A stretch of 64,000 bases of DNA, taken from positions 1 to 64,000 of the forward strand of contig CAVYNY010000021.1 in assembly GCA_963769935.1 (NCBI GenBank). The letters are read 5' to 3'. The stretch is from an uncultured delta proteobacterium (GTDB taxonomy: Bacteria > Desulfobacterota > Desulfobacteria > Desulfobacterales > JAFDCJ01). The notes under the pieces were generated by a model. That model had not been told where the DNA came from, searched no databases, and saw only the letters and a program-made list of their open reading frames with translations. The translations under genes were made by a program, and so were the position numbers. Each line of letters begins with the position of its first letter. Position 1 is the stretch's first letter. This document shows positions 33-61,371 of this stretch, one piece after another.

Positions 33-280
33 CAATTAAAGATTGAACCTCTAAGGCGCGAAGGTTCATTTTGTCCGAATCGGGTACATCAGCCGATAAG
101 GCGCCGGCTGATGTTACGATTCGGACAAATCTCTCATGTGTATGACAGGTGAAAAGGCTAAAAGGTTTTATCTGTTATTTAAAACCTTGCCATTCAAAAA
201 ATAATCAGTTTTTCACAAGGAAATTGGAGCATTAATCACTTCTGCGGGATAGGTCTTCGGAATGGTATAGAATCAAATGA
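33..280. repeat. Cassette-boundary repeat copy A (arm + hairpin 70-129) with extended tail shared with copy D
   Basis: CAATTAAAGATTGAACC...AAGGCGCGAAG, then TTTGTCCGAATCG-GGT-ACATCAGCCG-loop-CGGCTGATGT-TA-CGATTCGGACAAA. Tail 130-280 aligns with about 2415-2580. Confidence 0.9.
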
Positions 281-306
281 ATCATTCGACTTTCGCTAAA
301 TTAGGC

Positions 307-513
307 TTAAAGCAAAAAATTTTCTGTAATTCGTTTGGTTGCAACAACTTTAACCCATTCCATGTTTTGAGAAAGGAATTCTATATAATCATCTATCCCG
401 CCTTTTGAAGCTTGCAGCCTGGCAGCGTCAAATGCTTTGCCCCTGATTTTATCATTGGCATCTTCTATCAATTCATATTTTTCTTCACTGCTCAATTTCA
501 CTGAGCCATTCAT
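307..513 (-). CDS. Small hypothetical protein, probable partner of the upstream nucleotidyltransferase remnant
   Basis: 68-aa ORF with AAGGAGG RBS; overlaps the end of the 485-622 mini-ORF in TA-like fashion. Confidence 0.6.
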   Translation of the reverse strand: MNGSVKLSSEEKYELIEDANDKIRGKAFDAARLQASKGGIDDYIEFLSQNMEWVKVVATKRITENFLL

Positions 514-622
514 TCAGTAAAGCCTCCTTGTTAAATAGCTTAAAATATTCCTTGACAAGTTCAATATCAATTTCATTTTGAAATCTATAAATTAGTATCT
601 TTAGAACTTCTTTTAAATTCAT
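485..622 (-). pseudogene. Internally deleted nucleotidyltransferase-like gene (45 aa)
   Basis: Hand translation MNLKEVLKILIYRFQNE/IDIELVKEYFKLFNKEALLNEWLSEIEQ*. Looks like the N- and C-terminal helices of a nucleotidyltransferase joined directly. Confidence 0.5.
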
Positions 623-653
623 TTAAAAGCAGCTTTATTCTACTTCCATCAAT

Positions 654-708
654 CAATTAAAAGAGATTGAACCGCCAAGGCGCAAAGAGTGCGAAGGGTT
701 TTTTTGCC
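654..708. repeat. Cassette-boundary repeat copy B (arm only, hairpin missing)
   Basis: CAATTAAAAGAGATTGAACCGCCAAGGCGCAAAGAGTGCGAAGGGTTTTTTTG. Confidence 0.85.
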
Positions 709-723
709 ATTTTTATTGATTTT

Positions 724-846
724 TTAAACTTTTAGAACAGACCGCACTGCATCAATAATTTTCTGTGCATGGTTTATGCATTCCTCGGCATCTTCGGCAG
801 TTCGGAACCAGCGCATAGCCTCCTTACGGTTCTTTTCAGTGCTCAT
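724..846 (-). pseudogene. Internally deleted HEPN-domain toxin (40 aa)
   Basis: MSTEKNRKEAMRWFRTAED/AEECINHAQKIIDAVRSVLKV*: typical HEPN first helix (EAxRWxxxAxxD) joined to last helix (DAExxIxxAxxI); overlaps MNT stop. Confidence 0.75.
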
Positions 847-1153
847 AAATTGTCGAACCTTCCTTAACAATCTTTTGTATGAAGGCACGATGAGAGATTT
901 TGCTGAACTCTTCAGGTGTATATATCAACATATCTATCGCTGGGTCTGGGATAAGCTCAAAAATTTCGTTAAAAGCTTCGTACCTTTCGAAAAACCTTTC
1001 TTTGGTTTGCACAATGATCATTAGGTCCAGATCGCTCTTGCGACTCTGGGTCTTTCTGGCAAATGATCCGAAAACAACTGCTTTTAGCACCCCTTGCTTT
1101 TCAAACAGGGGGGTTAAGGTTCTTTTTAGGTTATCAACGGTTAGAGAGACCAT
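836..1153 (-). CDS. Minimal nucleotidyltransferase (MNT) antitoxin
   Basis: VFGSFARKTQSRKSDLDL (GSx10DxD motif); ATG at 1153 preferred over the ORF-track start inside the repeat. Confidence 0.9.
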   Translation of the reverse strand: MVSLTVDNLKRTLTPLFEKQGVLKAVVFGSFARKTQSRKSDLDLMIIVQTKERFFERYEAFNEIFELIPDPAIDMLIYTPEEFSKISHRAFIQKIVKEGSTIYEH

Positions 1154-1172
1154 AATTGTTTGTCTGCGACAG

Positions 1173-1282
1173 CAAAAAAAAAATTGAACCGCCAAGGCGC
1201 GAAGATCGCGAAGGGTTTTTTGGCCCGAATCGGGTACACCAGCCGATAAAAAGCGCCGGTTGGTGTTACGATTCGAATAAAT
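1173..1282. repeat. Cassette-boundary repeat copy C
   Basis: ATTGAACCGCCAAGGCGCGAAGATCGCGAAGGG-TTTTTTGGCCCGAATCGGGTACACCAGCCG...CGGTTGGTGTTACGATTCG. Confidence 0.9.
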
Positions 1283-1349
1283 TCAATCCGCCAGTGTTGA
1301 ATCCTTCAGCTTTTTTTTAGCACACTAGGGTTTAGTTATGAATCTCAAA

Positions 1350-1847
1350 TTATTTATCATCAATTAATTTGGCCAATTCGTCGATAAAGTCAGCAAAGGC
1401 AAGCAACTCAGCATGCAGTGATTTCCATAGATCCGGCAATTTTGACATTAGCTTGCTAATCCTGTCAGGCACAAGGTTTGTTGCATAAACATTTCGAACG
1501 AGATGTCTAAACCGCCGAAATTCGTCCAAAGACTTGGCGTTATTCTGGCCGATTACCGCAGGGCGTATGTCCTTGATTTCTTTCGCCATCTGTTGGAGAA
1601 GATCTCGGTGCCAGGCTTCGCCATCTGGAATAGAATGGTCAATGTGTCTGGCAATAAGCTCAAAAAGACGCTCCAAGCCTGAATAAAAACTATGTAGATT
1701 CAGTGCAACAGAATCAAGGTATACTTCTTGCTCGCTCACCGATTTCTGAGCGTATGGCCATGCGCGCAAAGCTCTTTGAACCACTCTCTCCAGATCTTGA
1801 CATTCGCCGTGAATTCTTTGGCTTATCTCTATGTAAATTGAATTCAA
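1350..1847 (-). CDS. HepT-like/HEPN ribonuclease toxin
   Basis: LHSFYSGLE, WHRDLL and FRRFRHLVRNVY HEPN motif; coupled to upstream MNT. Confidence 0.85.
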   Translation of the reverse strand: MNSIYIEISQRIHGECQDLERVVQRALRAWPYAQKSVSEQEVYLDSVALNLHSFYSGLERLFELIARHIDHSIPDGEAWHRDLLQQMAKEIKDIRPAVIGQNNAKSLDEFRRFRHLVRNVYATNLVPDRISKLMSKLPDLWKSLHAELLAFADFIDELAKLIDDK

Positions 1848-2230
1848 AGTTCCAGCCCGTATCTGTCTATAGCCTGTCGTAACGCAACTCCAGATGATTC
1901 AATTTCGATAAAATCTACAGATCTGTCTTTAATTATCTCTTCAGCAATGCTCCAAGCATCCCAGTAGTCATCACCGTGGATTCCTTCTACAGCGAGATCA
2001 ACGTCAGAATCCGAAACAAACCAGCCCTCATGGGCTAGCGAGCCGAATAAGACTATCCGGCGGACATTGAATCGTGATTTAATTTCATCGGCGGCCTTTT
2101 GAATCTGGTTTAATAGGCGGTTTCGTTCTTTTTGCTCTGATGACGATAGTTTTGTTTTGGGTACTTTGTGCCTGCCTGATTTCAGGTAGCGTTCCCAGCC
2201 TTTGCGGCCTAATTCTAAAGCAGTCTGCAT
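1844..2230 (-). CDS. MNT antitoxin (nucleotidyltransferase)
   Basis: LFGSLAHEGWFVSDSDVDLAV motif. Confidence 0.9.
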   Translation of the reverse strand: MQTALELGRKGWERYLKSGRHKVPKTKLSSSEQKERNRLLNQIQKAADEIKSRFNVRRIVLFGSLAHEGWFVSDSDVDLAVEGIHGDDYWDAWSIAEEIIKDRSVDFIEIESSGVALRQAIDRYGLEL

Positions 2231-2302
2231 TGTTATTCCTACTTCCCTAAACCTAAGTTAGAGGCTCATAAAGTGCTTCTATACGGTAGGATTAAAGTCT
2301 TG

Positions 2303-2478
2303 CAATTAAAAATAGATTGAACCGTCAAGGCGCTAAGAGCGTGAAGGGCTTTTTGGTCCGAATCGGGTACACCCGCCGATAAAAAGCGCCGGCTAGTGTT
2401 ACGATTCAAACAAAGTTCTCATGTGTATGACAGGTGAAAGGTAAAAGGCTAAAGGTTAAAGGCTAAAGGTTTTATCTG
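2303..2478. repeat. Cassette-boundary repeat copy D including AAAGGCT/AAAGGTT heptamer run
   Basis: CAATTAAAAATAGATTGAACCGTCAAGGCGCTAAGAGCGTGAAGGG, hairpin, then TCTCATGTGTATGACAGGTGAAA as in copy A. Confidence 0.9.
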
Positions 2479-2684
2479 TTATTTAAAACTTTGCCATTCT
2501 AGAAATAATCATTTTTTCACGATCAAATTGAGGCATCGATCACCTCCGACAAATATCGTCTTCGAAAAGGTGCAAAATCAAAATATTTCCTAAGGCTGTA
2601 ACTTTCAAAGTCGGAACGCAGGTTGGGTTTCTTATCTAAAATAACCTTGCCTTGGCGGATGACATTTTGGATAAAGGAATCGGA
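2479..2684 (-). pseudogene. 3' half of an MntA antitoxin plus internally deleted HepT/DUF86 remnant
   Basis: 2684-2523 reads SDSFIQNVIRQGKVILDKKPNLRSDFESYSLRKYFDFAPFRRRYLSEVIDASI* (similar to the C-terminus of 8051-8503). An overlapping ATG at 2536 (MPQFDREKM) is joined out of frame to LFLEWQSFK*. Confidence 0.7.
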
Positions 2685-3083
2685 CTATTTGAGCAGCTCG
2701 AACAATTCAAGCTTAGCCGCTCTCTTGTTAAATGTAATCACAGGGACGCACCCTGAATACTTCGCATGATGAGCAATCAATAAGTCTGAAAGATCCGTTT
2801 TGTTTTCACGCGCCAAAGATATAAAGCTCCGTGTCGCTGATTGCGCCTCAAACTCTAAGATGGGCATCAACAGAAGTTCATCAATTGAGTCTAATATCTC
2901 TTGCCGGGATGTATCATAAACCGCTTCAAGCACCCAAAGAGTTTCAAGTACAACGAGTATTGGAATAAAAAAAGATTCCGTTTTCGACTCGGCTTGTTTG
3001 AATAGCTTGTATACAGCTTTAGCCTGCAGCTCGTCATCCTTAACCAGGAATCGAATCAACACGTTCGTATCTAACGCCTTCAT
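2685..3083 (-). CDS. vapC: PIN-domain toxin (VapC family)
   Basis: MKALDTNVLIRF, E in VVLETLWVL, DLSDLLI; last acidic residue appears as TFN rather than TFD. Confidence 0.9.
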   Translation of the reverse strand: MKALDTNVLIRFLVKDDELQAKAVYKLFKQAESKTESFFIPILVVLETLWVLEAVYDTSRQEILDSIDELLLMPILEFEAQSATRSFISLARENKTDLSDLLIAHHAKYSGCVPVITFNKRAAKLELFELLK

Positions 3084-3328
3084 CGGGAAAGCACCCGCAT
3101 TTTCTCTCTGATCTTTTCGTCCATCTCCTCGACAGATACCGGCTTTCTTTCAGATTTGTATAATCTCCCAAAAACATCATCGACTTTTTTTGTGACCGGT
3201 TTGATATAGGCTTTACCATTCTCGACGAGGACGAATTCAAGTTTATCCCCTGAATGTAATCCCAAGGATTCCCTGATCGCCTTAGGAATTGTTACCTGCC
3301 CTTTGTTAGTTAGAGTCGCTAATGCCAT
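3080..3328 (-). CDS. AbrB/MazE/SpoVT-family antitoxin
   Basis: ATLTNKGQVTIPKAIRESLGL motif; ATGA overlap with vapC. Confidence 0.92.
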   Translation of the reverse strand: MALATLTNKGQVTIPKAIRESLGLHSGDKLEFVLVENGKAYIKPVTKKVDDVFGRLYKSERKPVSVEEMDEKIREKMRVLSR

Positions 3329-3359
3329 GGAAAATTATCTCCTTACTTTTTTTCGAATT

Positions 3360-3396
3360 CTTACCGCATCGTAAGGCATGGTGGATTAATAGTCAA
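3360..3396 (-). promoter_or_regulatory. Sigma70 promoter with palindromic operator for abrB-vapC
   Basis: Minus strand TTGACT-N17-TACGAT; CTTAC-N6-GTAAG palindrome (3360-3375) overlaps the -10 box. Confidence 0.6.
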
Positions 3397-3442
3397 GCCG
3401 TTTTATGTAACACAATAGAATTATTATTAATTTTATTCAGGA

Positions 3443-3491
3443 ATGTTTTTATTGACAACGACGCCGGCGCCGATGAAACAGTAGCAACCCA
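3443..3491 (-). pseudogene. 49-bp fragment of a second wbpD-like allele
   Basis: 41/49 nt identical to 3882-3930 (counted by hand); reads LGCYCFIGAGVVVNKNIPE versus [19 protein letters not shown]. Confidence 0.85.
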
Positions 3492-3607
3492 ATTAAAAAT
3501 GATTAAACCGCGAAGGCGCGAAGAGCGCGAAGAGTTTTTTGGTTCGAATCGGGTACACCAGCCGATAGGACGCCGGCTGGTGTTTCGATTCGAACAAAGC
3601 TCTCATG
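3490..3607. repeat. Cassette-boundary repeat copy E
   Basis: CAATTAAAAATGATTAAACCGCGAAGGCGCGAAGAGCGCGAAG, then hairpin GTTCGAATCG-GGT-ACACCAGCCG..CGGCTGGTGT-TT-CGATTCGAAC. Confidence 0.9.
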
Positions 3608-3658
3608 CTCTCTCATCAAATGGTGTATCTCACATGCGAATCGCCTTCCTGCTTAAAA

Positions 3659-3694
3659 ATCCTCCTCGATCCTCCTTTAGAAAAGGAGGAGGAT
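3659..3694. repeat. REP-like hairpin
   Basis: ATCCTCCTCGATCCTCCTTT-AGA-AAAGGAGGAGGAT. Confidence 0.5.
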
Positions 3695-3730
3695 GGGTTT
3701 CTCCCTTTTGATAGCGTGCCGAATAGATTA

Positions 3731-5407
3731 TCAAGATTTTATGAGTTTTAATCCGGACTCAGTTTTCGAATATTTTTTGCCGCAGGCCAGGCATTCCAGG
3801 TCGTCCGGCAAGCGTTCGCCGCACTCGCAGGCCCAGCCGATCTGTCTGGCCGGATTGCCGACAACCAGGGCAAAATCGAGGATGTTTTTATTGACCACCG
3901 TACCGGCGCCGATAAAACAGTAGCGGCCCAGGGTGACGCCGCAGACGATCGTGGCGTTGGCGCCGATGGTAGCGCCTTTTTTCACCAGGGTGGGCCGCAC
4001 CTGATCCATTTTGCCGATTTCCGCCCTGGGGTTGTAAATGTTGGTGAACACCATCGACGGCCCGCAGAAGACGCCGTCCTCGAGCGTGATCCCCTTGAAG
4101 ACCGAGACGTTGTTCTGAATCTTGCAGTTTTGGCCGATGCTCACATCCGGCCCGATAACCACGTTTTGGCCGATGTTGCAGTTCGTCCCTATTCTGGAAT
4201 TGGGGAGCACATGCGAAAAGTGCCAGACCTTGGTCCCCCGGCCGATCGTAATATTCTCATCAATGACCGCCGTCGGGTGGATGAATGCGCCTTGCGCTTT
4301 AGCGCGTAGCTCGTAGCTGTTTGTTCGTGAGCTGATAGGACTTTTTTCAAATGCCAAGCCTGCAGGTTCACCCAAAACAATGTTCCGGCCGTTATTGTTG
4401 AGGGAAGCCTGGCTGGCATTGAGAATTTCCAGGACCTTTAAACCTTCCCGTCCGTCTGTTCGCGGTTGGGTGCCGTTGGCCATACAGTCGAGGAAATGTT
4501 GGCACTCCTCCTGCAAAGGCTCGTGCTGCTCGATATTTACTCTTTCCGGATCCGCCTTGGTGGGAACCGGCAAGCTATTTTTCCAGTTGATCTGATGCGG
4601 GTACAAAAGCAGTTTATCCTCCCAGGACAGGGTGTCGTCAAAAACGGCCATTTTGCGATCGCCGACCACCACCAGTTTCTGCTCTTTGAATGGATGCAGC
4701 CAGGACACAAAAATATGCGCCCGCAGCCCCGAGGGAAACACCATGTGAGTGGTGGTGACATCGGCAATTTTTTGATGCAGATAGTTGCCGCCGGTGGTCA
4801 TGATGCTTTCCGGCGCCTCACCGGCCAGCGACAGGATCATGGAAATATCATGGGGTGCAAAGGACCAGAGAATGTTTTCCTCCCGCCTGATCTTGCCGAG
4901 GTTAAGGCGATGGGAATAAATATAGTTGATTCGTCCCAGTTCGCCGGCGGCCGCCATTTCCTTCAGCCGCACAAAAACCGGGTGATACTGCAAAAGGTGT
5001 CCGACCATCAGCACCCTTTTCTTCTGCTTTGCCAACTCGATAAGTTCCTGCCCCTCTTCCTCCCGCAACACCAGAGGCTTTTCTACATAGACGTGTTTGC
5101 CGGCCAGCAGGCTCTCTCGGGCAATGTTGAAATGGGTCTCAGCCGGTGTTGCAATAACCACCCCGCTTATATCACCCCGGGTGAGCACGTCGGTCAGTGC
5201 CAGACAGGTGTCGATGCCCTCATACTGATTCTTGAAATCCGCAAGGATGGTTTCATTTTTGTCGGCTATCAGTTTTAGCGCATTCAGGTGGTAGAAATTT
5301 CGAACCAGGTTTTTGCCCCAGTAGCCGCTGCCGATGACCGCCACCGATGGCGGACTGCCATCGGGTAACGAGTTATTGTTAATGGGTGACGGGTTGTTTT
5401 TTCTCAT
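3731..5407 (-). CDS. Fused Gfo/Idh/MocA oxidoreductase (WbpB-like) and hexapeptide N-acetyltransferase (WbpD-like)
   Basis: GSGYWG Rossmann motif, VEKP, APHD; C-terminal LbH repeats with [19 protein letters not shown] and CxC..CxxC tail. Confidence 0.9.
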
Positions 5408-5478: not shown

Positions 5479-5803
5479 TCAGGTAATCATTGCCCCTTTA
5501 TGACGGGCGGCCTGGTGCTGATGAGCACGATCTACTAATTCTAAAGCTTTTTTCCGTTTCTTGGATTTCAGCCTTGTCGACCAAATGCATAAATTAATTC
5601 GATGGCCTGGCATGACCAACCACTTCATGATGATCCTTTAACGGCTTGCCGGAAACAGTTAAACCCTCTTCAATGACGAATTTGGTCTCACCAAGCGTCA
5701 GGGTATTTCCTTCGATGGCCGTTGAGGAGTGTGTCCAAAGGTCTCGCAGTTGTGCCTTTAAGGCGGCTTTTATATCGGAGACCAGATGTTGGAAAAATTC
5801 CAC
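5479..5803 (-). pseudogene. Fic-family protein remnant (N- and C-termini only)
   Basis: WTHSSTAIEGNTLTLGET (Fic inhibitory helix) then AIELIY..LVDKAEI joined to KALELVDRAHQHQAARHKGAMIT*; no HPFxDGNGR core. Confidence 0.8.
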
Positions 5804-5832: not shown

Positions 5833-5860
5833 CACCGCGGAGTTCGCTGAGAACGCTGAG
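5833..5860. repeat. 9-bp-period arm related to the cassette-boundary repeats
   Basis: CACCGCGGAGTTCGCTGAGAACGCTGAG immediately upstream of the Fic remnant. Confidence 0.6.
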
Positions 5861-5864
5861 CCTC

Positions 5865-7026
5865 TTATCTTTGATTTTGATCCCAGCGCACCTTGCGATA
5901 AATCTGCTCCGTCCTGACTTTTTCTTTGTGCTTGGCGGCAAACTCAAGCATGTCGGCAATAACTTCATCGGTCAGAAGGTGGGGTTTGAGGCCAAGGTCC
6001 AACAAGCCGGTATGGGCCGGATTGTAGTAGTGCTCTTCGGCCTCCTTGCGGGGATTGGCAACCGTTGAAATTTCAGCTTTAAACCCCAACGAGCGGGCAA
6101 CCCGCCGGACCATTTCGGCCAGCTGGTTGACGCTGAACGTTTCGGTAAACTGGTTGAAGATTCGAAGTTCACCTTTTGGGGCAGGATTTTCAAGGGAAAG
6201 CCGCACGCAGTTCAGGGTGTCGATGATATTGAGATATCCCCTGGTCTGTCCGCCTTTGCCGTAGACCGTCAGAGGATAGTCCGCCACGGCTTGAACCGCA
6301 AAGCGGTTCAGCACGGTGCCGAACAGTTCATCATAATTCAGAAAAGAGTATAAATCTTCATGGCCGCGATTTTCCTCGGTAAAGATACCGTAGACGGGCC
6401 CCTGCATCAGGTCGGTAACCCGAAGCTCCCAGGTTCGCACATAAAACCACAAAAGATCCGTATCCATGATCTTGGTGGTGTGATACAGGCTGCCGGCCTG
6501 GCGTGGATACAAAAATTTTTGACGGCGGCCCTTATGGTGAACCTCAAGCCAACCTTCCTCGATATCGATGTCGGGCGTCCCATATTCACCCATGGTGCCG
6601 AGTTTGACGATGTGGGCCTCCGGACAGAATTGCTGCACGGCAAAAATCAAATTCGCCGTGACGTCAAGGTTGTTTTGCAAAGTCAGCGTGGCGGCGCGGC
6701 GATTCAGCATGGAATACGGGGCGGCCGGCTGTTCCGCATAGTGAACAATTGCTTCCGGAACAAACTCCCTGAAAAACTTCTTCAACAAACTCCCAATTTC
6801 TCAGATCACCGATGAAGATGGGAATAGAGTAACCTGCAAGGGTTTCCCACAAAGCGGATCGCTGATGCAAATTGGGGACTTCGACCAACGGCTCGACATT
6901 TTCTTCCCGGCCTAAAGATCTGCGCAAATAGTTGTCGACCACGGCGACCTTATGGCCATGCGCGGTCAAATGCATGGCCGTCGGCCAGCCTAAATAACCG
7001 TCACCGCCTAAAATTAAAACATTCAT
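5865..7026 (-). CDS. UDP-sulfoquinovose synthase-like NAD-dependent epimerase/dehydratase (SQD1/SqdB/Agl3 family); one frameshift near 6790
   Basis: GGDGYLGWPTA, HYAEQPAAPYSM, KLGTMGEYGTP, YHTTK, TDLMQGPVYG. Confidence 0.85.
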
Positions 7027-8067
7027 TGGGTTTCTTCCAACAGTTTGTGAGTATGGAGGAATTCGGCCAAAGCGCGTTGGGAAAGCGGCGCATGATTGGC
7101 CGAATTGTAAGGTTTGGTTACCGTCTGGCTGACAACATTTGAATAGTTGTAATCGATTTTGCGATAGATACTGCCATAGGCGGGCAGCACGACAAAATAT
7201 TGCTTCAATTCCCAGGCTCTTCTGATTTCCTCTTCATTCATCAACTCTTCATATAATTTTTCACCCGGTTTGCTTCCGATGGTTTTAATTTCAATATTTT
7301 CCGGTGAAAATTCATAGCGCGAAGCCAATTCTTTGATCATCACCTCGGCCAGATCTTGAATGCGAATTGCCGGCATTTTAGTGATAAAAACTTCACCCCC
7401 GACCGCATGGCAGGCCGACTCGATTACCAAACGAATAGCCTCTTCCAGACTCATTATAAACCGGGTCATGGTCGGATCGGTTAAGGTCACCGGACCGCCG
7501 CGGCGGATTTGTTCCCGGAAGATAGGAATCACAGAACCCCGGGAGCCCAGGACATTGCCGAACCGGGTGGAAGTGAATATGGGACCGTCTTCCCGGCTGT
7601 TGCTGTTGGCCGCCGCCATCAATCGCTCTCCCATCAGCTTGCTGGCGCCCATGACATTGGTCGGGATTGACGGCCTTGTCGGAACTGGTGAAGATGACGC
7701 GTTTTACTTTATTTTCTATCGCAGCGTTGATAATATTTTGAATACCCAAAATGTTGGTCTGTACGGCTTCGAAAGGCGAACGCTCACATAAAATCACATG
7801 TTTAAAGGCCGCCGTATGAAAGACGATGTCCATGCGCCTCATCTTGCGGGAAACCTTTTCCCGATCACGCACATCGGCCAGAAAAAAACTGACATTTTCG
7901 AATGGCGCAAATTCTTCTTCCAGAAAAAAAAGCTCGCTCTCATTGTTGTCGATGCCGATAAGCTCACAAACCTTATGGTTTTTCAACAACTGATGGATCA
8001 ATTCCCTGCCGACGGTGCCGCAGGCGCCGGTTACGAGTACCCTTTTATCCTCAAATAGTGATTTCAT
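7023..8067 (-). CDS. CapD/PseB-like UDP-GlcNAc 4,6-dehydratase; one frameshift near 7665
   Basis: TGACGTVG, AAFKHV, SSDKAVNP, MGASK, RFGNVLGSRGSVIP, KPGEKLYEEL. Confidence 0.88.
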
Positions 8068-8503
8068 AGCCGACGCCTTTTAAGAATTCCTTGTCGAATT
8101 CATCCCTAAAATATCTGAAATCCAGATATAATTTTACGGTTTTTTCGATAAAATCTTTAAGAACGTCAGAATCCGAGCAAAAAAGAAGTTTTCCCGATTT
8201 GATGATATTATAAGAAAAGCGCATAGGTGCATCATTCATTAAAACAAGATCTATTTCGTCGGTCTCAAAATGGTCATTAAAAACGCCTATCAGCTCAAGA
8301 TGTTTATCAAATTTTTGCTCTCGATCGAAAGTGGGTGAGACAAGAATCCCAAAGTCAAGATCACTCAATGGTTTTAAATCACCCCTGGCTAAACTTCCAA
8401 AAGAGAAAAGAGCGACAATCTCCTTATCTTTGGATATCCGATTTATTAATTCCGGAATACGATCCACAATATGGGGAGGCAGTCTGCGGCCTTCGCGTAT
8501 CAT
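8051..8503 (-). CDS. Orphan MntA-type nucleotidyltransferase antitoxin
   Basis: FGSLARGDLKPLSDLD, EIDLVLMNDAP, YLDF; overlaps both neighbours; no HepT partner. Confidence 0.88.
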   Translation of the reverse strand: MIREGRRLPPHIVDRIPELINRISKDKEIVALFSFGSLARGDLKPLSDLDFGILVSPTFDREQKFDKHLELIGVFNDHFETDEIDLVLMNDAPMRFSYNIIKSGKLLFCSDSDVLKDFIEKTVKLYLDFRYFRDEFDKEFLKGVGYEITI

Positions 8504-23943: not shown

Positions 23944-25855
23944 TTATTTCTCATTTAAAATGGCCATTTTTTGTCTCTGCACTGCGTTCGGCCATTTTTT
24001 GCTTTTTTACTCAACAATGATAGAAGCAGCTCGTGATCATTGCTTTTTTCAGCGGCTTTGATCTGCTCCTCCAAGCAAACGATTGTTGCGAAGCTTTTGC
24101 CTGATATCCACAAACTTGCCGAGCAATATGAGACACCCCTTTTTATTCCAGGATTCCTCCTCCATCGATAGAGAAGCGATTAAAGATTCATTTTGTTCGT
24201 TATTAATTTGAGACATCAGCTCGGACACCTGATCGGCTGAAGTCGCATTGAATTTCAAGATCATATTCCCGATGGATTGAAGTGTACTATCTTCAAAATA
24301 TTCTAGAACGTTCTGCTTATCAATTTCAGGTAATATCTCAGGAAATTGAAGCATCATCGCAATGATCCGGCGCTCAAAGCGGCTACCGGCATTGATATCC
24401 GGCAACCCTGCCGCCCCTGCCGCAGACCCCGCCGATCCGATCTTTTGCGATTCGCCGGCCGGCGTTGCAGCCCTTGAACCCGAGGCGGATGAGCTGCGAT
24501 TTTTGGCGGCCAAGGCTCGTGACGCTCTCCAGCACAGCCGATTCTGCAATGCCGATTCGTTCAGCCAGCTGCTGAATGTATATTGCCTGGGCCACCCGGT
24601 CATTTATCGCCGATAGCGGTTCCTGCAATTCTGATATTATCCGAAGTTTTCCTTCAGGTGTCAGAGGCCGTGTCTGCGGACCGCACAGTCCATAAGAAAT
24701 GTTATGATCCCCGGCGAATTGGACGCCGCCGCCAAAAAAGCTTCCGGTCCATTTTCGAAAACAAATGAATCCGGGTCATGTCCGGCGGGCAATACCAGGA
24801 TATGGGTATCCGCTTTTTCCTCGCTGAATACATCCTCTCTTCGAAAGTCGACATGTTCTTGCCAGAAGGTCTCGATACAGCGCTGGGCCGAACGGATACC
24901 GGCTTCATCAGAGTCATAGACCAGAATCATACGGCCTGCATAGCGGGTTAATAATCTTACATGCTCCGCCGTTAACGCCGTGCCGAGAGTTGCGACCGAA
25001 TTTTCAATACCATGCTGATGCAGTGCCAACAGGTCCAGATAGCCTTCAACGATAAAGACCGTGCCGGCGGCCCGGCATTTATCTTTGGCCCGGTGAATGC
25101 CGTAAAGCGAACGGCTTTTGTTATATACCGGAGTCTCCGGAGAATTAAGATATTTCGGCAGAGCAGTCATCCAGCACGCGGCCGCCGAAGCCGATAACCT
25201 GCATATTCACATCAAATATCGGAAAGATAATCCGATTACGAAAACGATCGTAATAGCCGCTGTTGTCTTTTCTGGGCAGAATCAATCCGCTCTTTTCAAG
25301 CTGGGCGGGCGATATTCGTTTGCTTGAGAAAAACCTGAAAAGATGATCCCACCCATCGCGGGCGAATCCGAGCTTAAAGTCATCAATCGTCTTTTGAGAA
25401 ATTCCCCTCTTAGAAAGATATGATCTCGCCGTCTCACCGGCGGCACTGTTCACCAAGGATTGATGAAAAAAATCCATCGCTCGACGATTCAGGTCGAGCA
25501 GGCTCTCCTTTTCGCTGATTCGCTTTCTTTGTTCCGGTGAAAGCGGTCTTTCCGGAATATCAACTCCATAACGTTTGGCGAGATGCCTGGCGACTTCCGG
25601 AAAGGATAGCCCCTCCTGTTTCATAAGGAAGCTGAAAACATTGCCCCCGGCACTGCAGCCAAAACAATGGAAAATCTGTTTGTCCGGGCTGACCGTAAAA
25701 GATGGAGTTTTTTCGGAATGAAACGGACAAAGCCCGATGTAGTTTTTACCTGCTTTTTTCAGAAGCACAGATTCTGAAACGACATCCACAATATCGGCCG
25801 CATTCTTGATTTCTGAAATTTTATCTTCAGGTATTAGAACAGCCAATGACAGCAA
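23944..25855 (-). CDS. dnaG: DNA primase (split by several probable sequencing frameshifts)
   Basis: CPFHSEKTPSF..CFGC zinc finger, DRFRNRIIFPI, KYLNSPET, VEGYLD, DSD, DPD. Confidence 0.95.
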
Positions 25856-46518: not shown

Positions 46519-48982
46519 CTAATGGCTACGCCTTTTGTTCGGACCTCCGACCTCTGTCCTTTGTCTTCCGAGTTCTGTCTTCTGTCTTCTGATCTCCGTC
46601 ATCCGTTTATCAGACAGTGCCGTTTTGAGCACCTGTTCCATATTCCGCACTGTAATAAATTTAATTTTACGCTTGACGTTTTGCGGTATCTCGGTCAAAT
46701 CTTTTTTATTTTTCTCCGGGATGATAATCGTACGGATACCGGCCCGCAGGGCACCGAGAGCTTTTTCTTTCAATCCCCCGATGGGCAAGCACCCTGCCCC
46801 TGAGGGTAACCTCACCGGTCATGGCAACATCATTGCACACCGGGCGCTCCGCCAGAGCTGAGACTAAGGCCGTAGCCATGGCGATGCCGGCCGAAGGTCC
46901 ATCTTTGGGAATTGCCCCGGCGGGCACATGAATATGAATATCCACATTTTCAAAATTCTTCTTTTTTATTCCGAGTGATCTGAGATTGGCCCGGGTATAG
47001 GTCACAGCAGCCCGGGCAGATTCCTGCATCACCTCGCCGAGTTGCCCGGTAACAATCAACTCACCTTTGCCGCCGATCAGAGATGCCTCGACATAAAGCA
47101 CTTCACCGCCGACCTGGGTCCAAGCCAAGCCGGTCGCCAGGCCCACCTGGCTGTTTTCCTGATCCATTTCGGGATATACTTGGCCACACCCAAGAATTTC
47201 TGCAGATTGCCCCTGGTGATCTTAAAAGTCTTCCTGCGGCCCTCCGCGATTTGGCGTGCCGCCTTGCGACAAATGCTGCCGATCTCACGCTCGAGATTCC
47301 TCAGACCGGCTTCTGAAGTGTATTCGGTTATGATCTGAAGCAAGGCAGCGCTGCCGATCGAAAGCGACCTCGGCTTTCAAGCCGTTTTCTTTTAACTGGC
47401 GCGGAATCAGGTGCTGGAATGCAATGGTCATTTTTTCTTCCTCGGTATAGCCGGAAAGATTGATAACTTCCATTCTATCCAGCAACGCCGACGGAATGGT
47501 GTCGGTTGCATTGGCGGTGAGAATAAACATGACTTTCGAAAGATCAAACGGCAGATTCAGAAAATGATCGCTGAAACTCTGAATTCTGTTCCGGGTCCAG
47601 CGCTTCCAGCAGCGCTGACGACGGATCGCCCCGAAAATCCGAGCCCAATTTGTCGATTTCATCCATCATGAAAACGGGGTTGTTGGTGCCGCATTGCTTC
47701 AAACCCTGCAGGATGCGACCCGGCAGAGCGCCGATATAGGTTCGACGATGCCCGCGGATTTCGGCTTCATCCCGGATGCCGCCCAAGGAAATACGAATGA
47801 ACTTTCGTTTCATGGCCCGCGCAATGGATTGTCCCAGCGAAGTCTTGCCGACGCCCGGAGGCCCTACAAAGCAAAGGATCGGCCCCTTCATGTTCGGGAT
47901 TCAGTTTGCGAACGCTTAAATATTCCAGAATGCGGTCTTTGACATTGATCAAGTCCGTAATGATCTCTGTCCAGAACCTTTTTGGCTCTTTTTATGTCGA
48001 TCACATCTCGTGACGATTTATTCCAGGGCATGTCCACCAGCCAGTCCAGGTAGGTTCGAACCACGGTGGATTCCGCTGAATCAGGATGCATCTTCTCCAG
48101 GCGTTTTAACTGTTTGGCGGCCTCTTGGTTGGCTTCCTTCGACATTCGGGCCTGCCTGATTTTTCTTTTATAATCTTCCAGCTCCTGAATACTGTCATCC
48201 TGTTCTCCCAGTTCCTTGTAAATCGCCCGCACCTGCTCTCTTAAAAAATAATCCCGCTGGCTTTTAGATATTTCATCCTTGACGTCGGATTGAATTTTGG
48301 CCTGCATGGAAGACAGCTGAACTTCGCGGGAAAGCAAGTCATTGACTTGCCTTAATCGTTCAACAGGATCGATGATTTCAAGCAGTTTTTGAGAATCTTC
48401 AATTTTAAGCCTCAGGTTCGAAGCCACCAGGTCGGCAAGTTTGCCCGGCTCTTCCACACTTTGCAGGATAGTGATGACATCGCCGGTCATTTCACCGCGC
48501 AGGACTAATATTTTTTCACAATGCTCGCGAACATTGCGCATTAAGGCTTCTATTTCCAAGCTGATGGCATCGACCGTCGGTTCTATGATCATCTCAAGCT
48601 TCACGCGATATAAGGAGCGTTTGCGTGTGTATTTGACGATCTTGGCTTTGGCACAGCCCTGGACCAGAATTTTGATATTGCCGTCGGGTAATTTCAGCAT
48701 GCGCAAAACGCGACCGACAGTACCGGTGCTGAATATTTCATCTGTGTTCGGGTTTTCAATACCCGGATCCTTTTGGGTGGCCAACAACAAATAACCTTCT
48801 TTTGCGATCGCCTCCTGGACTGCCCGCAATGATTTCTCGCGTCCTACGAACAGAGGCAGAACCATATCGGTAAAAACGACCACATCCCGCACCGGCATCA
48901 GCGGAAGGGTATCGGGAATTGGAGTATCGGGGTCATCATCGTCAATAATGCTTATAAGATCATCCATGTCGGCTTCAGCCAT
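46519..48982 (-). CDS. lon: Lon protease (several probable sequencing frameshifts)
   Basis: [48 protein letters not shown]. Confidence 0.95.
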
Positions 48983-51459: not shown

Positions 51460-51720
51460 AGGCCCTTAGACCTTTTGATCTAACAACGTGCTGTCAGAAA
51501 GCAAAGGTTTAAGGTGTCAGCGGTTAGAAAATACCAAATAAAAAATGTTTCGATGCCATTTTTACGAAGTGTCTCACCGCTGAGAGCGCAGAGAGCGCAG
51601 AGATAAATTTAACTTTTCTTTCTCGGCGTTCTCGGCGGGCTCTGCGGTGAACTATTTTGTTTCTTTTTCGATCAGACCGGCCGTTGTATTGGCCGGCGGC
51701 GGCACTGACACCTGAAACCC
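51460..51720. repeat. Composite nested intergenic repeat inside the kor operon
   Basis: GGTGTCAG...CTGACACC outer arms; TCACCGCTGAGAGCGCAGAG...CTCTGCGGTGA inner element; TTTCTTTTTCGATCAGACCGGCC unit. Confidence 0.75.
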
Positions 51721-60082: not shown

Positions 60083-61132
60083 CTACTCCCATATAATCCG
60101 GTTGCCGGAATCCTTGCATTCCAGGATTTCGCCGATCAGATAGGCTTTTTCTTTCATGGCGTCCAGCCGTTGCAAAACGTCCGCCGTCGCATCCGGCGGC
60201 ACGATGGCAACCATACCGATCCCATTGTTGAAGGTTCGCCTCATTTCCAGATCTGAAATCTTACCGGCTTGCTGCAGAAATTTAAAAATGGGGGGGACCT
60301 CCCACAGTTCCGTTTGCACCAGGATATTGCAGGTCTTCGGAACAACTCTTAAAATATTGTCGGCAATTCCGCCGCCGGTGATATGGGCCAGCCCGTGCAC
60401 CGGTATATCTTTCAAAAGGTTCAATATGGGCTCAACGTAGATCGTGGTGGGCGTGAGCAGCTCTTCGCCAAGGGTTTGGCCGAAGTCCGCTACATAGTCA
60501 TCGACTTTCATTTTAAGAATCTCGAAACAGATTTTCCGAACCAGAGAGTAGCCGTTGCTGTGCAGACCGCTGGACGCGATGCCAATGAGTTTGTGTCCCA
60601 CGCGAACTTCGGTACCGTCAATGATTTTGCTGTTGTCCACGATACCGACGGCAAAGCCGGCCAGGTCGTATTCATTTTGCTGGTAAAACCCGGGCATTTC
60701 GGCGGTCTCACCACCGATCAGCGCGCATTTGGCCTGTTTGCAGCCGTCTCCGATCCCGGCAATAATCGCGGCTGCGCGGTCGCTCTCCAATTTTCCCATG
60801 GATAAATAATCCAGAAAGAACAGCGGCTTGGCGCCCTGGACGAGAATATCATTAACACACATGGCAACCAGATCGATGCCGATGGTGTCGTGTTTGTCGA
60901 GCATGAATGCGATCTTAAGTTTGGTGCCGACCCCGTCCGTCGAGCTGACCAGGACCGGTCGGTCAAGATTGGCGAGATTCAGAGAAAAAAGTCCGCCGAA
61001 ACCTCCGATTTCTCCAATGACACCTGAGATCGTAGTTTGTTTGGCGATTTCATTGATGGTTGTAACCAGCTTATTGCCTTTGTCAATATCCACTCCGGCG
61101 TCCGCATAAGTCAGCGAATCGGTCATGGGCAT
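60083..61132 (-). CDS. purM: Phosphoribosylformylglycinamidine cyclo-ligase
   Basis: YADAGVDI, TDGVGTK, GGETAEMP, HSNGYS, TFNNGIG. Confidence 0.97.
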   Translation of the reverse strand: MPMTDSLTYADAGVDIDKGNKLVTTINEIAKQTTISGVIGEIGGFGGLFSLNLANLDRPVLVSSTDGVGTKLKIAFMLDKHDTIGIDLVAMCVNDILVQGAKPLFFLDYLSMGKLESDRAAAIIAGIGDGCKQAKCALIGGETAEMPGFYQQNEYDLAGFAVGIVDNSKIIDGTEVRVGHKLIGIASSGLHSNGYSLVRKICFEILKMKVDDYVADFGQTLGEELLTPTTIYVEPILNLLKDIPVHGLAHITGGGIADNILRVVPKTCNILVQTELWEVPPIFKFLQQAGKISDLEMRRTFNNGIGMVAIVPPDATADVLQRLDAMKEKAYLIGEILECKDSGNRIIWE

Positions 61133-61371
61133 CTCCTGTCTGGATTGTTCTGCAATTCGTGAATAAAAGTCCTTGAAATTTAAACTTATTCAGCATAAAA
61201 GTCAAAACAATTTTTTTGACTTCCTCAAATCACCGTCGTACTATTTAAATTTTAGCGTGTCAGCCAATTCGGGTAGTCGGAAAAAATCAGGACCAGCCCA
61301 AGGCCGGATGCACGCCAGTAGTGGATATGCTATTTTTCAGGGCGGATCAATTAAAAGGAGCAAAACAATCC

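Follow-up and report, generated by a model that had tools for sequence, protein, structure and literature searches.

Described systems related to the repeat array

Integrons and the clusters of attC sites lacking integron integrases (CALINs) are arrays of co-oriented small genes with a hairpin site after each gene. The same layout was found at the beginning of a 64,000-nt stretch of DNA (the window) from an uncultured delta proteobacterium of the order Desulfobacterales (assembly GCA_963769935.1, contig CAVYNY010000021.1), in which five copies of a hairpin repeat alternate with toxin–antitoxin (TA) modules beside surface-glycan genes. The inverse core of an attC site reads RYYYAAC. Its core is given as GTTRRRY in the accessible part of PMC8876359, and TA cassettes are common in integrons according to the accessible part of PMC8618304. 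The window represents the first 64 kb of the contig (C21) in an 8-Mb draft genome, with window base 1 being C21:1; since it begins at the first base of the contig, the DNA to its left is unassembled.

Repetitive extragenic palindromic (REP) sequences and the mosaic clusters formed by them (bacterial interspersed mosaic elements, BIMEs) are intergenic hairpin repeats with a GTAG-type foot, tied to a single-copy nuclease gene encoding the HUH Y1-type REP-associated tyrosine transposase (RAYT). In Neisseria, the Ssn/SRM system (SsnA-NTS) features a gene for a small single-domain GIY-YIG nuclease flanked by its own hairpin repeats, of which many gene-less copies exist, and is characterised by site-specific ssDNA cleavage near the hairpin; the accessible part of this source also names REP/RAYT (PMC11893778). 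Furthermore, the dRS3/NIME repeats of Neisseria form dynamic arrays by surface-structure genes, which have been proposed to favour exchange with incoming DNA, either through homologous recombination or through recombination targeted by an enzyme, as far as the accessible parts of the sources go (PMC11893778, PMC1797815).

The array in the window resembles both an imprecise integron and the nuclease-linked repeat arrays of Neisseria, and belongs to neither; it represents a nuclease gene with cognate intergenic repeats, which here enclose TA modules. With integrons and CALINs it shares the co-oriented, TA-rich small genes, the hairpin after each of them, and module gain, loss and reordering. In contrast to them, it is devoid of attC cores, an intact IntI and a fixed crossover, its junctions hold scraps of nuclease and glycan genes, and copies also stand alone at housekeeping genes. 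Like Ssn/SRM in the accessible part of its description, it features a nuclease gene (GxxExxY) flanked by its own hairpin repeat, many gene-less copies, and arrays near surface-structure genes. However, GxxExxY is a PD-(D/E)XK protein (PF13366) with a restriction-endonuclease-like predicted fold and not a GIY-YIG protein, its activity is predicted only, and window-type arrays enclose whole TA genes. The repeat itself is a ~110-nt hairpin plus arm, or a two-armed unit of 215–260 nt, whereas the NTS is an inverted repeat of 20–50 nt in the part of the source that was accessible. Intergenic hairpin repeats linked to a nuclease gene and arranged in mosaic clusters are also common to REP/RAYT, but the nuclease fold is another one, a GTAG-type foot is missing, and none of the 11 genome matches to the Y1 profile (PF01797) lies on the three repeat-bearing contigs C21, C8 and C32. 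Likewise, the Y2 transposase found next to the hairpin end of IS91/ISCR rolling-circle elements is not encoded on these contigs; both genome matches to its profile (PF04986) lie on C22 and C17.

The function of the GxxExxY family (TIGR04256; PF13366, PDDEXK_3) is given as 'Unknown' in the accessible part of PMC3424549. Its known definition covers the protein only, whereas here the repeat constitutes the downstream flank of member genes. In a literature search with supplements and most subscription papers outside its scope, we found no description of GxxExxY-linked repeats or arrays, of integrase-free TA cassette arrays, or of HEPN/MNT (minimal nucleotidyltransferase) repeat arrays in Desulfobacterales polysaccharide loci. 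The GxxExxY DNA element is apparently undescribed.

The repeat as the end of a GxxExxY nuclease element

The five copies (A to E) share one orientation and start at positions 33, 654, 1173, 2303 and 3490. Each comprises a tip (GATTGAACCGC on the plus strand), a 9-bp-periodic arm, a T-run and, with the exception of copy B, a hairpin of ~50–60 nt. Pairwise BLAST comparison among them yielded identities of 77–88%, with E values down to 1e-32. A covariance model, trained in part on the window copies themselves, assigned 106–126 bits to copies A, C, D and E and 43 bits to copy B, which is devoid of the hairpin; the best other match in the genome reached 33.5 bits. Copy number, orientation and the missing hairpin of copy B had been described in an earlier, sequence-only reading of this DNA, as had the gene content of the four co-oriented TA-type intervals between the copies, and both BLAST and the covariance model, for the genes Pfam matches and the intact genes of relatives, bear this description out.

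Judged from the flanks of GxxExxY genes, the repeat is assigned as the 3' end (hairpin plus periodic arm) of a GxxExxY nuclease element. An intact gene of this family, encoding 127 aa, lies between two copies on contig C8 (C8:188542-188925; TIGR04256 145 bits, cut-off 35), and the same arrangement was found in two related loci (L039 and L049). All three genes are full members of TIGR04256/PF13366, with the repeat directly downstream. GxxExxY genes were detected in 75 of 301 genomes of the order, and among the 30 best loci from these genomes, including the gene of this genome, 26 feature a 3' arm at most 200 nt downstream, compared to a background of 0.2% in 5,000 random windows; the periodic-arm pattern applied here had been formulated after GxxExxY flanks had been viewed. 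The upstream arm is inverted in 18 of these loci and direct in seven. Moreover, the top matches of the covariance model among the 30 loci adjoin the closest GxxExxY relatives (68–79% identical) and share hairpin and tip with the window copies. On C8, a gene-less two-armed unit of 215–260 bp ends in AACCGC...GCGGTT, representing terminal inverted repeats of the kind known from miniature inverted-repeat transposable elements (MITEs) and insertion sequences. Among the 58 classifiable copies, 14 are two-armed and 44 one-armed, and the repeat also occurs as solo copies.

The sequence next to the tips is in accordance with this assignment. The arm tip is followed by TTTAATTG in copies A, B, D and E and by TTTTTG in copy C, and TTTAATTG equals the first 8 nt of the GxxExxY leader. 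On the coding strand, an intact leader follows the tip in L039 and L049, 5' leader scraps follow it in L038, L049, L053 and L058, and the 3' part of the gene in L039, L052 and L053. In the window, leader scraps of 8 nt were found after the tips of A, D and E and of about 20–25 nt after that of B; a trailer scrap follows copy C, and trailer-type tails lie on the other side of A and D, so that all five copies adjoin leader or trailer scraps. Compared to L049 and L039, the entire GxxExxY unit was probably deleted from copy B along with the hairpin. The tail of copy E (to 3661) is located inside the array in L039, which also retains a longer 3' piece of the gene where the window holds an 11-nt scrap (1162-1172).

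The sequence-only reading had placed a sharp end of homology at TTTAATTG and the start of every cassette there. The sharp end is seen for A, D and E, with TTTTTG in C, while B continues for about 20 nt as the start of a GxxExxY gene, and copy E is followed by a 49-nt piece of a wlbA-like gene, which is no cassette start. Since TTTAATTG follows the tip in just eight of 66 tabulated hairpin-bearing copies, several of which are truncated by contig ends, it does not represent a family-wide boundary.

The predicted structure of the C8 protein (pLDDT 95.7) best matches restriction-endonuclease-like and Cas4-like chains, with Z-scores of 8.2 (root-mean-square deviation 3.4, 100 aligned residues), 8.0 and 7.8; E27, D67, E77 and K79 are invariant. 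By its predicted fold, GxxExxY is accordingly classified as a putative PD-(D/E)XK nuclease, a common fold being no proof of function. A sequence search of the PDB yielded nothing at E ≤ 1, and a Foldseek search with the model nothing at E ≤ 0.001.

The hairpin is stable, with 94.7% of cells paired. Covariation is weak (5 of 500 shuffles), two pairs have changed on both sides, and the basal stem is invariant at six of seven pairs, its left strand having been fixed by the search pattern. Departures of the G-T and the A-C type amount to 35 and 27 cells in 55 copies, without strand bias. Good pairing, a near-invariant basal stem, weak covariation and the lack of strand bias are more in keeping with a protein-recognised DNA site than with a structured RNA. 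The stable pairing, the two pairs changed on both sides and the T-run after the arm on the coding strand would also suit an element acting in RNA (a small RNA, a terminator or a site of processing) that the host maintains so as to set the TA modules of the operon mRNA apart. Such a function is highly improbable given the lack of strand bias, the weak covariation and the opposite orientation, relative to transcription, of both copies in a second C8 glycan locus. Furthermore, no Rfam family fits the repeat (best E 0.19), and the terminator scan made no call at the hairpin, this promoter and terminator scan itself performing at chance level. For the widespread GxxExxY proteins, the conserved hairpin-arm unit with its near-invariant basal stem represents a candidate substrate.

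Repeat copies elsewhere in the genome

BLAST, nhmmer and the covariance model concordantly yielded 14 copies in the genome. Besides the five in the window, a tandem series of six occupies C8:187254-189150 immediately upstream of wzz, the second C8 glycan locus carries two, and one is located on C32 in a spacer between pseudouridine synthase and thioesterase genes. Among relatives, L038 and L041 have their arrays beside wzz and L052 beside the wlbA-like gene, and in genome G013 (L058) a TA cluster lies between the wlbA-like gene and wzz. As relatives place arrays at either gene, the G013 cluster lies between both and C8 changes to 68%-GC DNA immediately after its last unit, the window array probably has its other end on C8, which would bring 11 copies into one locus. 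The array probably continues leftward beyond the contig start. One contig from public run X1 connects an MNT-like tail to window position 20. A circular molecule was weighed as the origin of this joint (2673 to 20, one contig, gap of unknown length) and dismissed, since the joint is accounted for by a paralogous MNT module to the left of copy A. The end of contig C17, bearing integron integrase (intI) fragments and a Y1 gene, was likewise rejected as the left continuation; arms and hairpins are missing there, and relatives place wzz at this position.

Immediately past the last repeat unit, the GC content of C8 rises from ~0.45–0.52 to 0.67–0.70 (C8:189160-208153; L001 from 9160 onward) and remains high to the contig end. 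These ~19 kb probably represent foreign DNA mis-joined at the repeat; in contigs of runs X2 and X3, another repeat unit follows where C8 turns GC-rich. Arrays of this type not only mimic integrons but also break assemblies, with the contig beginning at one array end and a probable mis-join after the other.

The joins within the window were compared with contigs from four public DNA runs (three studies), which match pieces of the array mostly at 95–100%. These contigs span the left junction of copy D (930 nt, two differences), copy E and both internal deletions; the corresponding joins are therefore not assembly errors of one genome alone, and any of the runs may represent the source sample. 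In the second C8 glycan locus (C8:150200-152200, L002), the 5' end of a GT2 gene is duplicated, a GxxExxY gene is broken, and the opposite strand encodes a TA-like pair.

Gain, loss and reordering of modules among relatives

Comparison of related loci indicates that TA modules move between strains. L038 is devoid of a 1.1-kb module present in L041/L052, with flanks 96% identical and both joins within the repeat, and each form was seen in two assemblies (L041/L052 and L038/L048). The same two HEPN/MNT modules occur in opposite order in L052 and L053 (917-2115 vs 3129-4306; 2501-3276 vs 2373-3151). In each of four loci (window, L049, L053 and L058), a different neighbour lies upstream of the AbiEii module on the far side of an arm. 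Within the window, copies A and D, including their tails, go back to the duplication of a block in which a deletion had already occurred: 134-277 duplicates 2418-2582, with an identical deletion joint in both. Gain or loss and a change of order across the repeat among relatives, in line with the shuffling proposed in the sequence-only reading, were thus observed.

The junctions themselves are imprecise. Of 58 homology-block ends, 11 lie in the repeat in both partners, eight in one partner and 39 in neither; the count covers 11 arrays (L041 and L052 merged; L048, L045, L056, L032 and the C8 solo copy left out), its block ends are non-independent, and a few fall just outside the defined repeat zones. 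What adjoins the tip differs in both length and origin; after copy E, it is the interior of a wlbA-like gene. Gene-internal deletions in the TA genes have their joints at short microhomologies. The repeat is mostly not a precise recombination site.

Against this background, we consider it reasonably probable that the one-armed GxxExxY-element ends serve as ~110-bp recombination anchors in a pre-existing TA sink, extending from the wlbA-like gene to (probably) wzz, in which host recombination and microhomology deletions reshuffle the modules. Repeat-mediated recombination, one option of the sequence-only reading, is hence adopted as the best mechanism. In the presumed order of events, the element would have entered a glycan-locus spacer already collecting TA modules, its spread probably aided by its own PD-(D/E)XK nuclease, and would then have multiplied locally in tandem. 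Host homologous recombination between copies, presumably by RecA, on sister chromosomes or with incoming DNA of related strains, would subsequently have deleted, duplicated and reordered modules. Other ends would often have been joined at microhomologies, with the loss of nuclease genes, of the opposite arms and of portions of TA genes, leaving behind one-armed copies, GxxExxY scraps and gene stumps. Putative nicking by GxxExxY in trans, at the hairpin or the arm tip, may start some of these events. Incoming DNA can also be joined illegitimately with the help of a homologous anchor; this known route would account for the glycan-gene scraps in the window, in G013 and on C8. The outcome would be a sloppy, integrase-free, integron-like behaviour, and the repeats likely let TA genes be lost, gained and reordered between strains. 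The locus shows how TA and defence genes may accumulate and change order in glycan operons without an integrase, in parallel to the NTS/NIME arrays of Neisseria.

Several results weigh against this mechanism. Neither an empty target site nor a duplicated target was detected for any of the copies, so that the mobility of the element can only be inferred; relatives are non-syntenic across the C32 site, and a 16-nt direct repeat flanking the C8:159020 unit is the element's own tip. The link between the C21 and C8 arrays comes from synteny alone. The contigs compared are short metagenome assemblies, for which chimeras across repeats are possible, and each of the two module orders is represented by one such contig. 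Block ends are modestly enriched in repeats (19 of 58 when one or both partners are counted, with repeats making up 15% of the DNA), and a linkage test of left and right neighbours yielded arm identities of 0.80 vs 0.82 vs a background of 0.78. Finally, A, D and E diverge at one and the same base past TTTAATTG, and the L052 join also stops at the tip, which hints at a preferred cut site and favours a dedicated role of the nuclease.

According to this alternative, GxxExxY supplied in trans by the C8 copy would cleave the DNA at the arm tip or slightly beyond it, entire TA modules would be captured or exchanged during repair, and the hairpin-arm at the module 3' end would play an attC-like role. 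We regard it as rather unlikely. On the coding strand, hairpin plus arm do end every module in the window, a GxxExxY gene or scrap is present in most arrays of several families, the pattern-selected invariance of the basal stem is as expected for a protein-binding site, and in the comparison of L038 with L041/L052 the arm is closer to the right-hand copy (0.93 vs 0.81). The high proportion of block ends outside the repeats and the variable post-tip sequence do not fit, many modules are broken, and PD-(D/E)XK nucleases cut DNA, whereas rejoining by them is, to our knowledge, not known. The fixed TTG crossover of the sequence-only reading is not retained, as TTTAATTG is GxxExxY leader, most breakpoints fall in genes, and TA genes occur at the orthologous locus of G002 and G007 without the repeat. 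It is equally doubtful that an undescribed GxxExxY cassette system, each lineage having its own arm sequence, loads, swaps and reorders TA and defence modules in surface-glycan operons across the Desulfobacterales; if true, GxxExxY nucleases and hairpin-arm ends would constitute an integrase-free cassette system of these operons throughout the order.

Distribution of the repeat and of TA genes without it

The exact 23-nt pattern was detected at five loci in species genomes and 29 in metagenomes, all labelled Desulfobacterales or deltaproteobacteria. Pfam typing of these 34 outside loci (149 of 229 open reading frames (ORFs) scanned; some loci are replicate assemblies) assigned 12 to TA genes, five to glycan genes only, 13 to unrelated neighbours, i.e., ordinary intergenic sites, and left four uninformative. 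Scatter regardless of accessory genes, which the sequence-only reading had named as contrary evidence, thus applies in part, to the 13 ordinary sites. The covariance model matched in 33 of 150 genomes of the order, this genome included. Nine clusters from five other genomes, selected for multiple model hits (86 of 138 ORFs scanned), were inspected. Three of them, in G044, G125 and G156, form co-oriented and mostly one-armed arrays that hold other TA pairs and lie within or beside glycan-type genes, a GxxExxY gene being present in two of the three; arrays in glycan loci of other families agree with the glycan-locus association proposed before. The remaining six comprise a GxxExxY tandem after an rml operon in G037, one defence-island-like cluster and four in housekeeping operons. 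In the largest array seen (L161, G156:C71:10000-25790), 14 or more model hits in one orientation are spread over 12 kb, interspersed with TA pairs, ABC2 genes, genes for DNA methylases and one for GxxExxY.

At the orthologous locus, G002 carries MNT-HepT and MNT genes with the repeat absent, and G007 carries five TA-type genes, with this repeat likewise absent and an arm of a different family in front of the AbiEii module. G013 features three arms of the other family plus one copy and one stub of the window-type repeat, while in G018, G020 and G006 no TA genes were found directly behind the wlbA-like gene. A one-armed periodic repeat of the TCTGTG type, different from that of the window, precedes TA modules, the same AbiEii module included, at L058 14565, 16230 and 17098 and at L097 4542 (G007). 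Homologues of the AbrB-VapC and MNT-HepT pairs of the window were found in 22 of 400 genomes; by pattern, an upstream arm was present in none of the 22 (one without upstream DNA) and a downstream arm in one, two more being arm-like by eye. A survey of this genome with 16 TA queries yielded six loci, two with the repeat (probably one locus) and four without. Because TA genes occur without the repeat at the G002/G007 locus and arms are rare at homologues, the TA modules appear to come by their own routes and the TA sink to predate this repeat. The rarity of arms at these homologues also speaks against a nuclease-driven capture of the modules.

These distributions are in part what would be expected of a passive pile-up, in which selfish repeats just inserted between TA genes, ordinary deletions and separate TA arrivals did the rest, and the reorderings are assembly chimeras. 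At this locus, the repeat is absent from the TA clusters of L092 and L097 and present in few copies in that of L058, the MNT gene at window position 8051 stands in an array in G013 and armless in the window, ordinary sites account for many outside loci, and most breakpoints are gene-internal. A passive origin is nonetheless quite improbable: it does not explain the clean in-repeat module difference between the 96%-identical strains, an order reversal is impossible by deletion from one linear ancestor, and the tandem full units on C8 and the duplicated block in the window are unaccounted for.

Comparison with integrons

A strict RYYYAAC...GTTRRRY pair spanned none of the hairpins in the loci scanned, in line with the previous statement that the repeat is not a canonical attC site. 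A relaxed attC box rule was satisfied in four of 116 orientation tests, i.e., at the background of 3.4%, the control being weak with one putative site recovered. With GTT...AAC at its base, the hairpin has the reverse of the attC arrangement. As for the integrase, the TIGR02249 intI profile matched 18 fragments in the genome, none of which reached the cut-off (best 164 vs 265 bits) and none of which lies on C21, confirming that the window is devoid of an intI-like match; in G013, the ORFs scanned between wlbA and wzz likewise included no integron integrase. Decayed intI fragments are located at C20:456416-456848, C16:348155-348523, C13:559634-560334 and C17:217801-218256. By eye, TA-like ORFs lie near three of these four sites, and no arm or hairpin lies within ~3–4 kb of any of them. 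A fixed crossover bounding every cassette was not found either.

An atypical integron or CALIN, with the hairpin as a divergent attC site recombined by an integron integrase encoded elsewhere in the genome, would account for the small co-oriented TA-rich genes with a hairpin after each, the kind of cassette known from integrons, and for intI fragments on four other contigs. In addition, two of 20 AbrB-VapC homologous loci bear a complementary integron-core-like pair, none being seen in the window. This explanation is nevertheless very unlikely in view of the lack of attC pairs in the loci scanned, the reversed hairpin base, the sub-threshold intI fragments remote from arms and hairpins, and the occurrence of the repeat behind GxxExxY genes across families. 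The AbrB-VapC homologues in L105 and L108 (also L103 and L104) are bounded by the complementary pair GTTATGTC / GACATAAC, which suggests true integron cassettes; the AbrB-VapC pair of the window may descend from such a cassette.

Gene content of the array and neighbouring features

The four intervals between the copies hold TA modules on the minus strand (Table 1). Intact counterparts of several remnants were found in relatives, namely the 183-aa AbiEii-like gene (PF08843) in L049 and L053 and the HEPN gene (PF05168) in L039. The 68-aa ORF beside the AbiEii-like remnant matched nothing in Pfam and NCBIfam. The heptamer tract is one 7-nt unit shorter in one X1 contig; heptamer repeats are described in the accessible part of PMC4679880. 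The TTG common to both sides of the join between copy E and the wlbA-like fragment may represent microhomology.

Table 1. Features of the repeat array and its immediate surroundings (window coordinates).
Feature	Position	Strand	Evidence
Likely gene start (ATG GTT AAA), gene continuing past contig end	1..10	-	sequence
Copy A: shortened arm + hairpin (76-123), one-armed GxxExxY-element 3' end	33..138	+	covariance model 105.9 bits
GxxExxY-type trailer + short heptamer tract + fused HepT/MNT stubs	134..277	-	76% over 250 nt to D side
68-aa ORF, partner of AbiEii-like gene	307..513	-	88% identical to L053 ORF
AbiEii-like nucleotidyltransferase remnant, ~410 bp lost near 577, few-base microhomology	485..622	-	comparison with intact gene in relatives
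Scrap of GxxExxY leader + first codons, fused to AbiEii module	638..661	-	blastn to L039, L049 GxxExxY modules
Copy B: arm alone, hairpin deleted	654..704	+	covariance model 42.9 bits
HEPN toxin remnant, ~285 bp lost at 789-801, ~7-nt microhomology	724..855	-	weak HEPN match
MNT antitoxin	836..1153	-	PF18765 1e-12; 95% DNA identity to L039
11-nt GxxExxY trailer scrap between copy C tip and MNT start	1162..1172	-	sequence comparison
Copy C: arm + hairpin	1173..1281	+	covariance model 108.9 bits
HepT-like toxin, HepT-like_2 (PF20797)	1350..1847	-	E 1e-36
MNT antitoxin	1844..2230	-	PF18765 6e-8
Copy D: arm + hairpin, then GxxExxY-type trailer	2303..2423	+	covariance model 109.8 bits
Heptamer tract (AAAGGCT-like), separate unrelated repeat type	2437..2471	+	sequence
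HepT tail fused to MNT 3' half	2465..2684	-	both genes intact in L053
VapC (PIN) toxin	2685..3083	-	PF01850 4e-14
AbrB/MazE-type antitoxin	3080..3328	-	profile match
49-nt fragment of wlbA-like hexapeptide gene, joined to copy E tip	3443..3491	-	84% to 3882-3930
Copy E: arm + hairpin	3490..3607	+	covariance model 125.5 bits
WlbA-like oxidoreductase-hexapeptide acetyltransferase fusion, glycan gene upstream of array	3731..5407	-	orthologue precedes arrays in L052, L058

Between copy E and the wlbA-like gene, a hairpin with purine and pyrimidine runs (CCTCCT...AGGAGG) is located at 3661-3712, and a similar one follows C8:149678; it resembles repeats that occur beside DUF559 nuclease genes. Further into the glycan operon, a 69-aa ORF at 5594-5803 on the minus strand resembles, on visual inspection, the N-terminal part of a protein of the Fic family, with no match in Pfam and NCBIfam, and would represent a further accessory-gene stub. 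A solitary MntA antitoxin gene is encoded at 8051-8503 on the minus strand, the orthologue of which resides in the TA array of G013 with a HepT partner. Genes at 5865-8067, 24049-25855 and 46519-48982 (two glycan genes, dnaG and lon) are apparently split by frameshifts, possibly due to sequencing errors in the assembly.

The genome holds 142 matches to the periodic-arm pattern. In the window, a lone 3' GxxExxY-type arm of another word type lies at 5834-5851, upstream of the wlbA-like gene, and an inverted pair of such arms, again of another word type, at 51593-51647. More than six co-oriented arms of another word type, with no genes between them, are piled up at C27:59500-60000 and 61050-61300, in the spacers of an exopolysaccharide-like locus which by eye encodes wzc-like, ExeA-like ATPase, kinase-like and four-helix-bundle-like ORFs.

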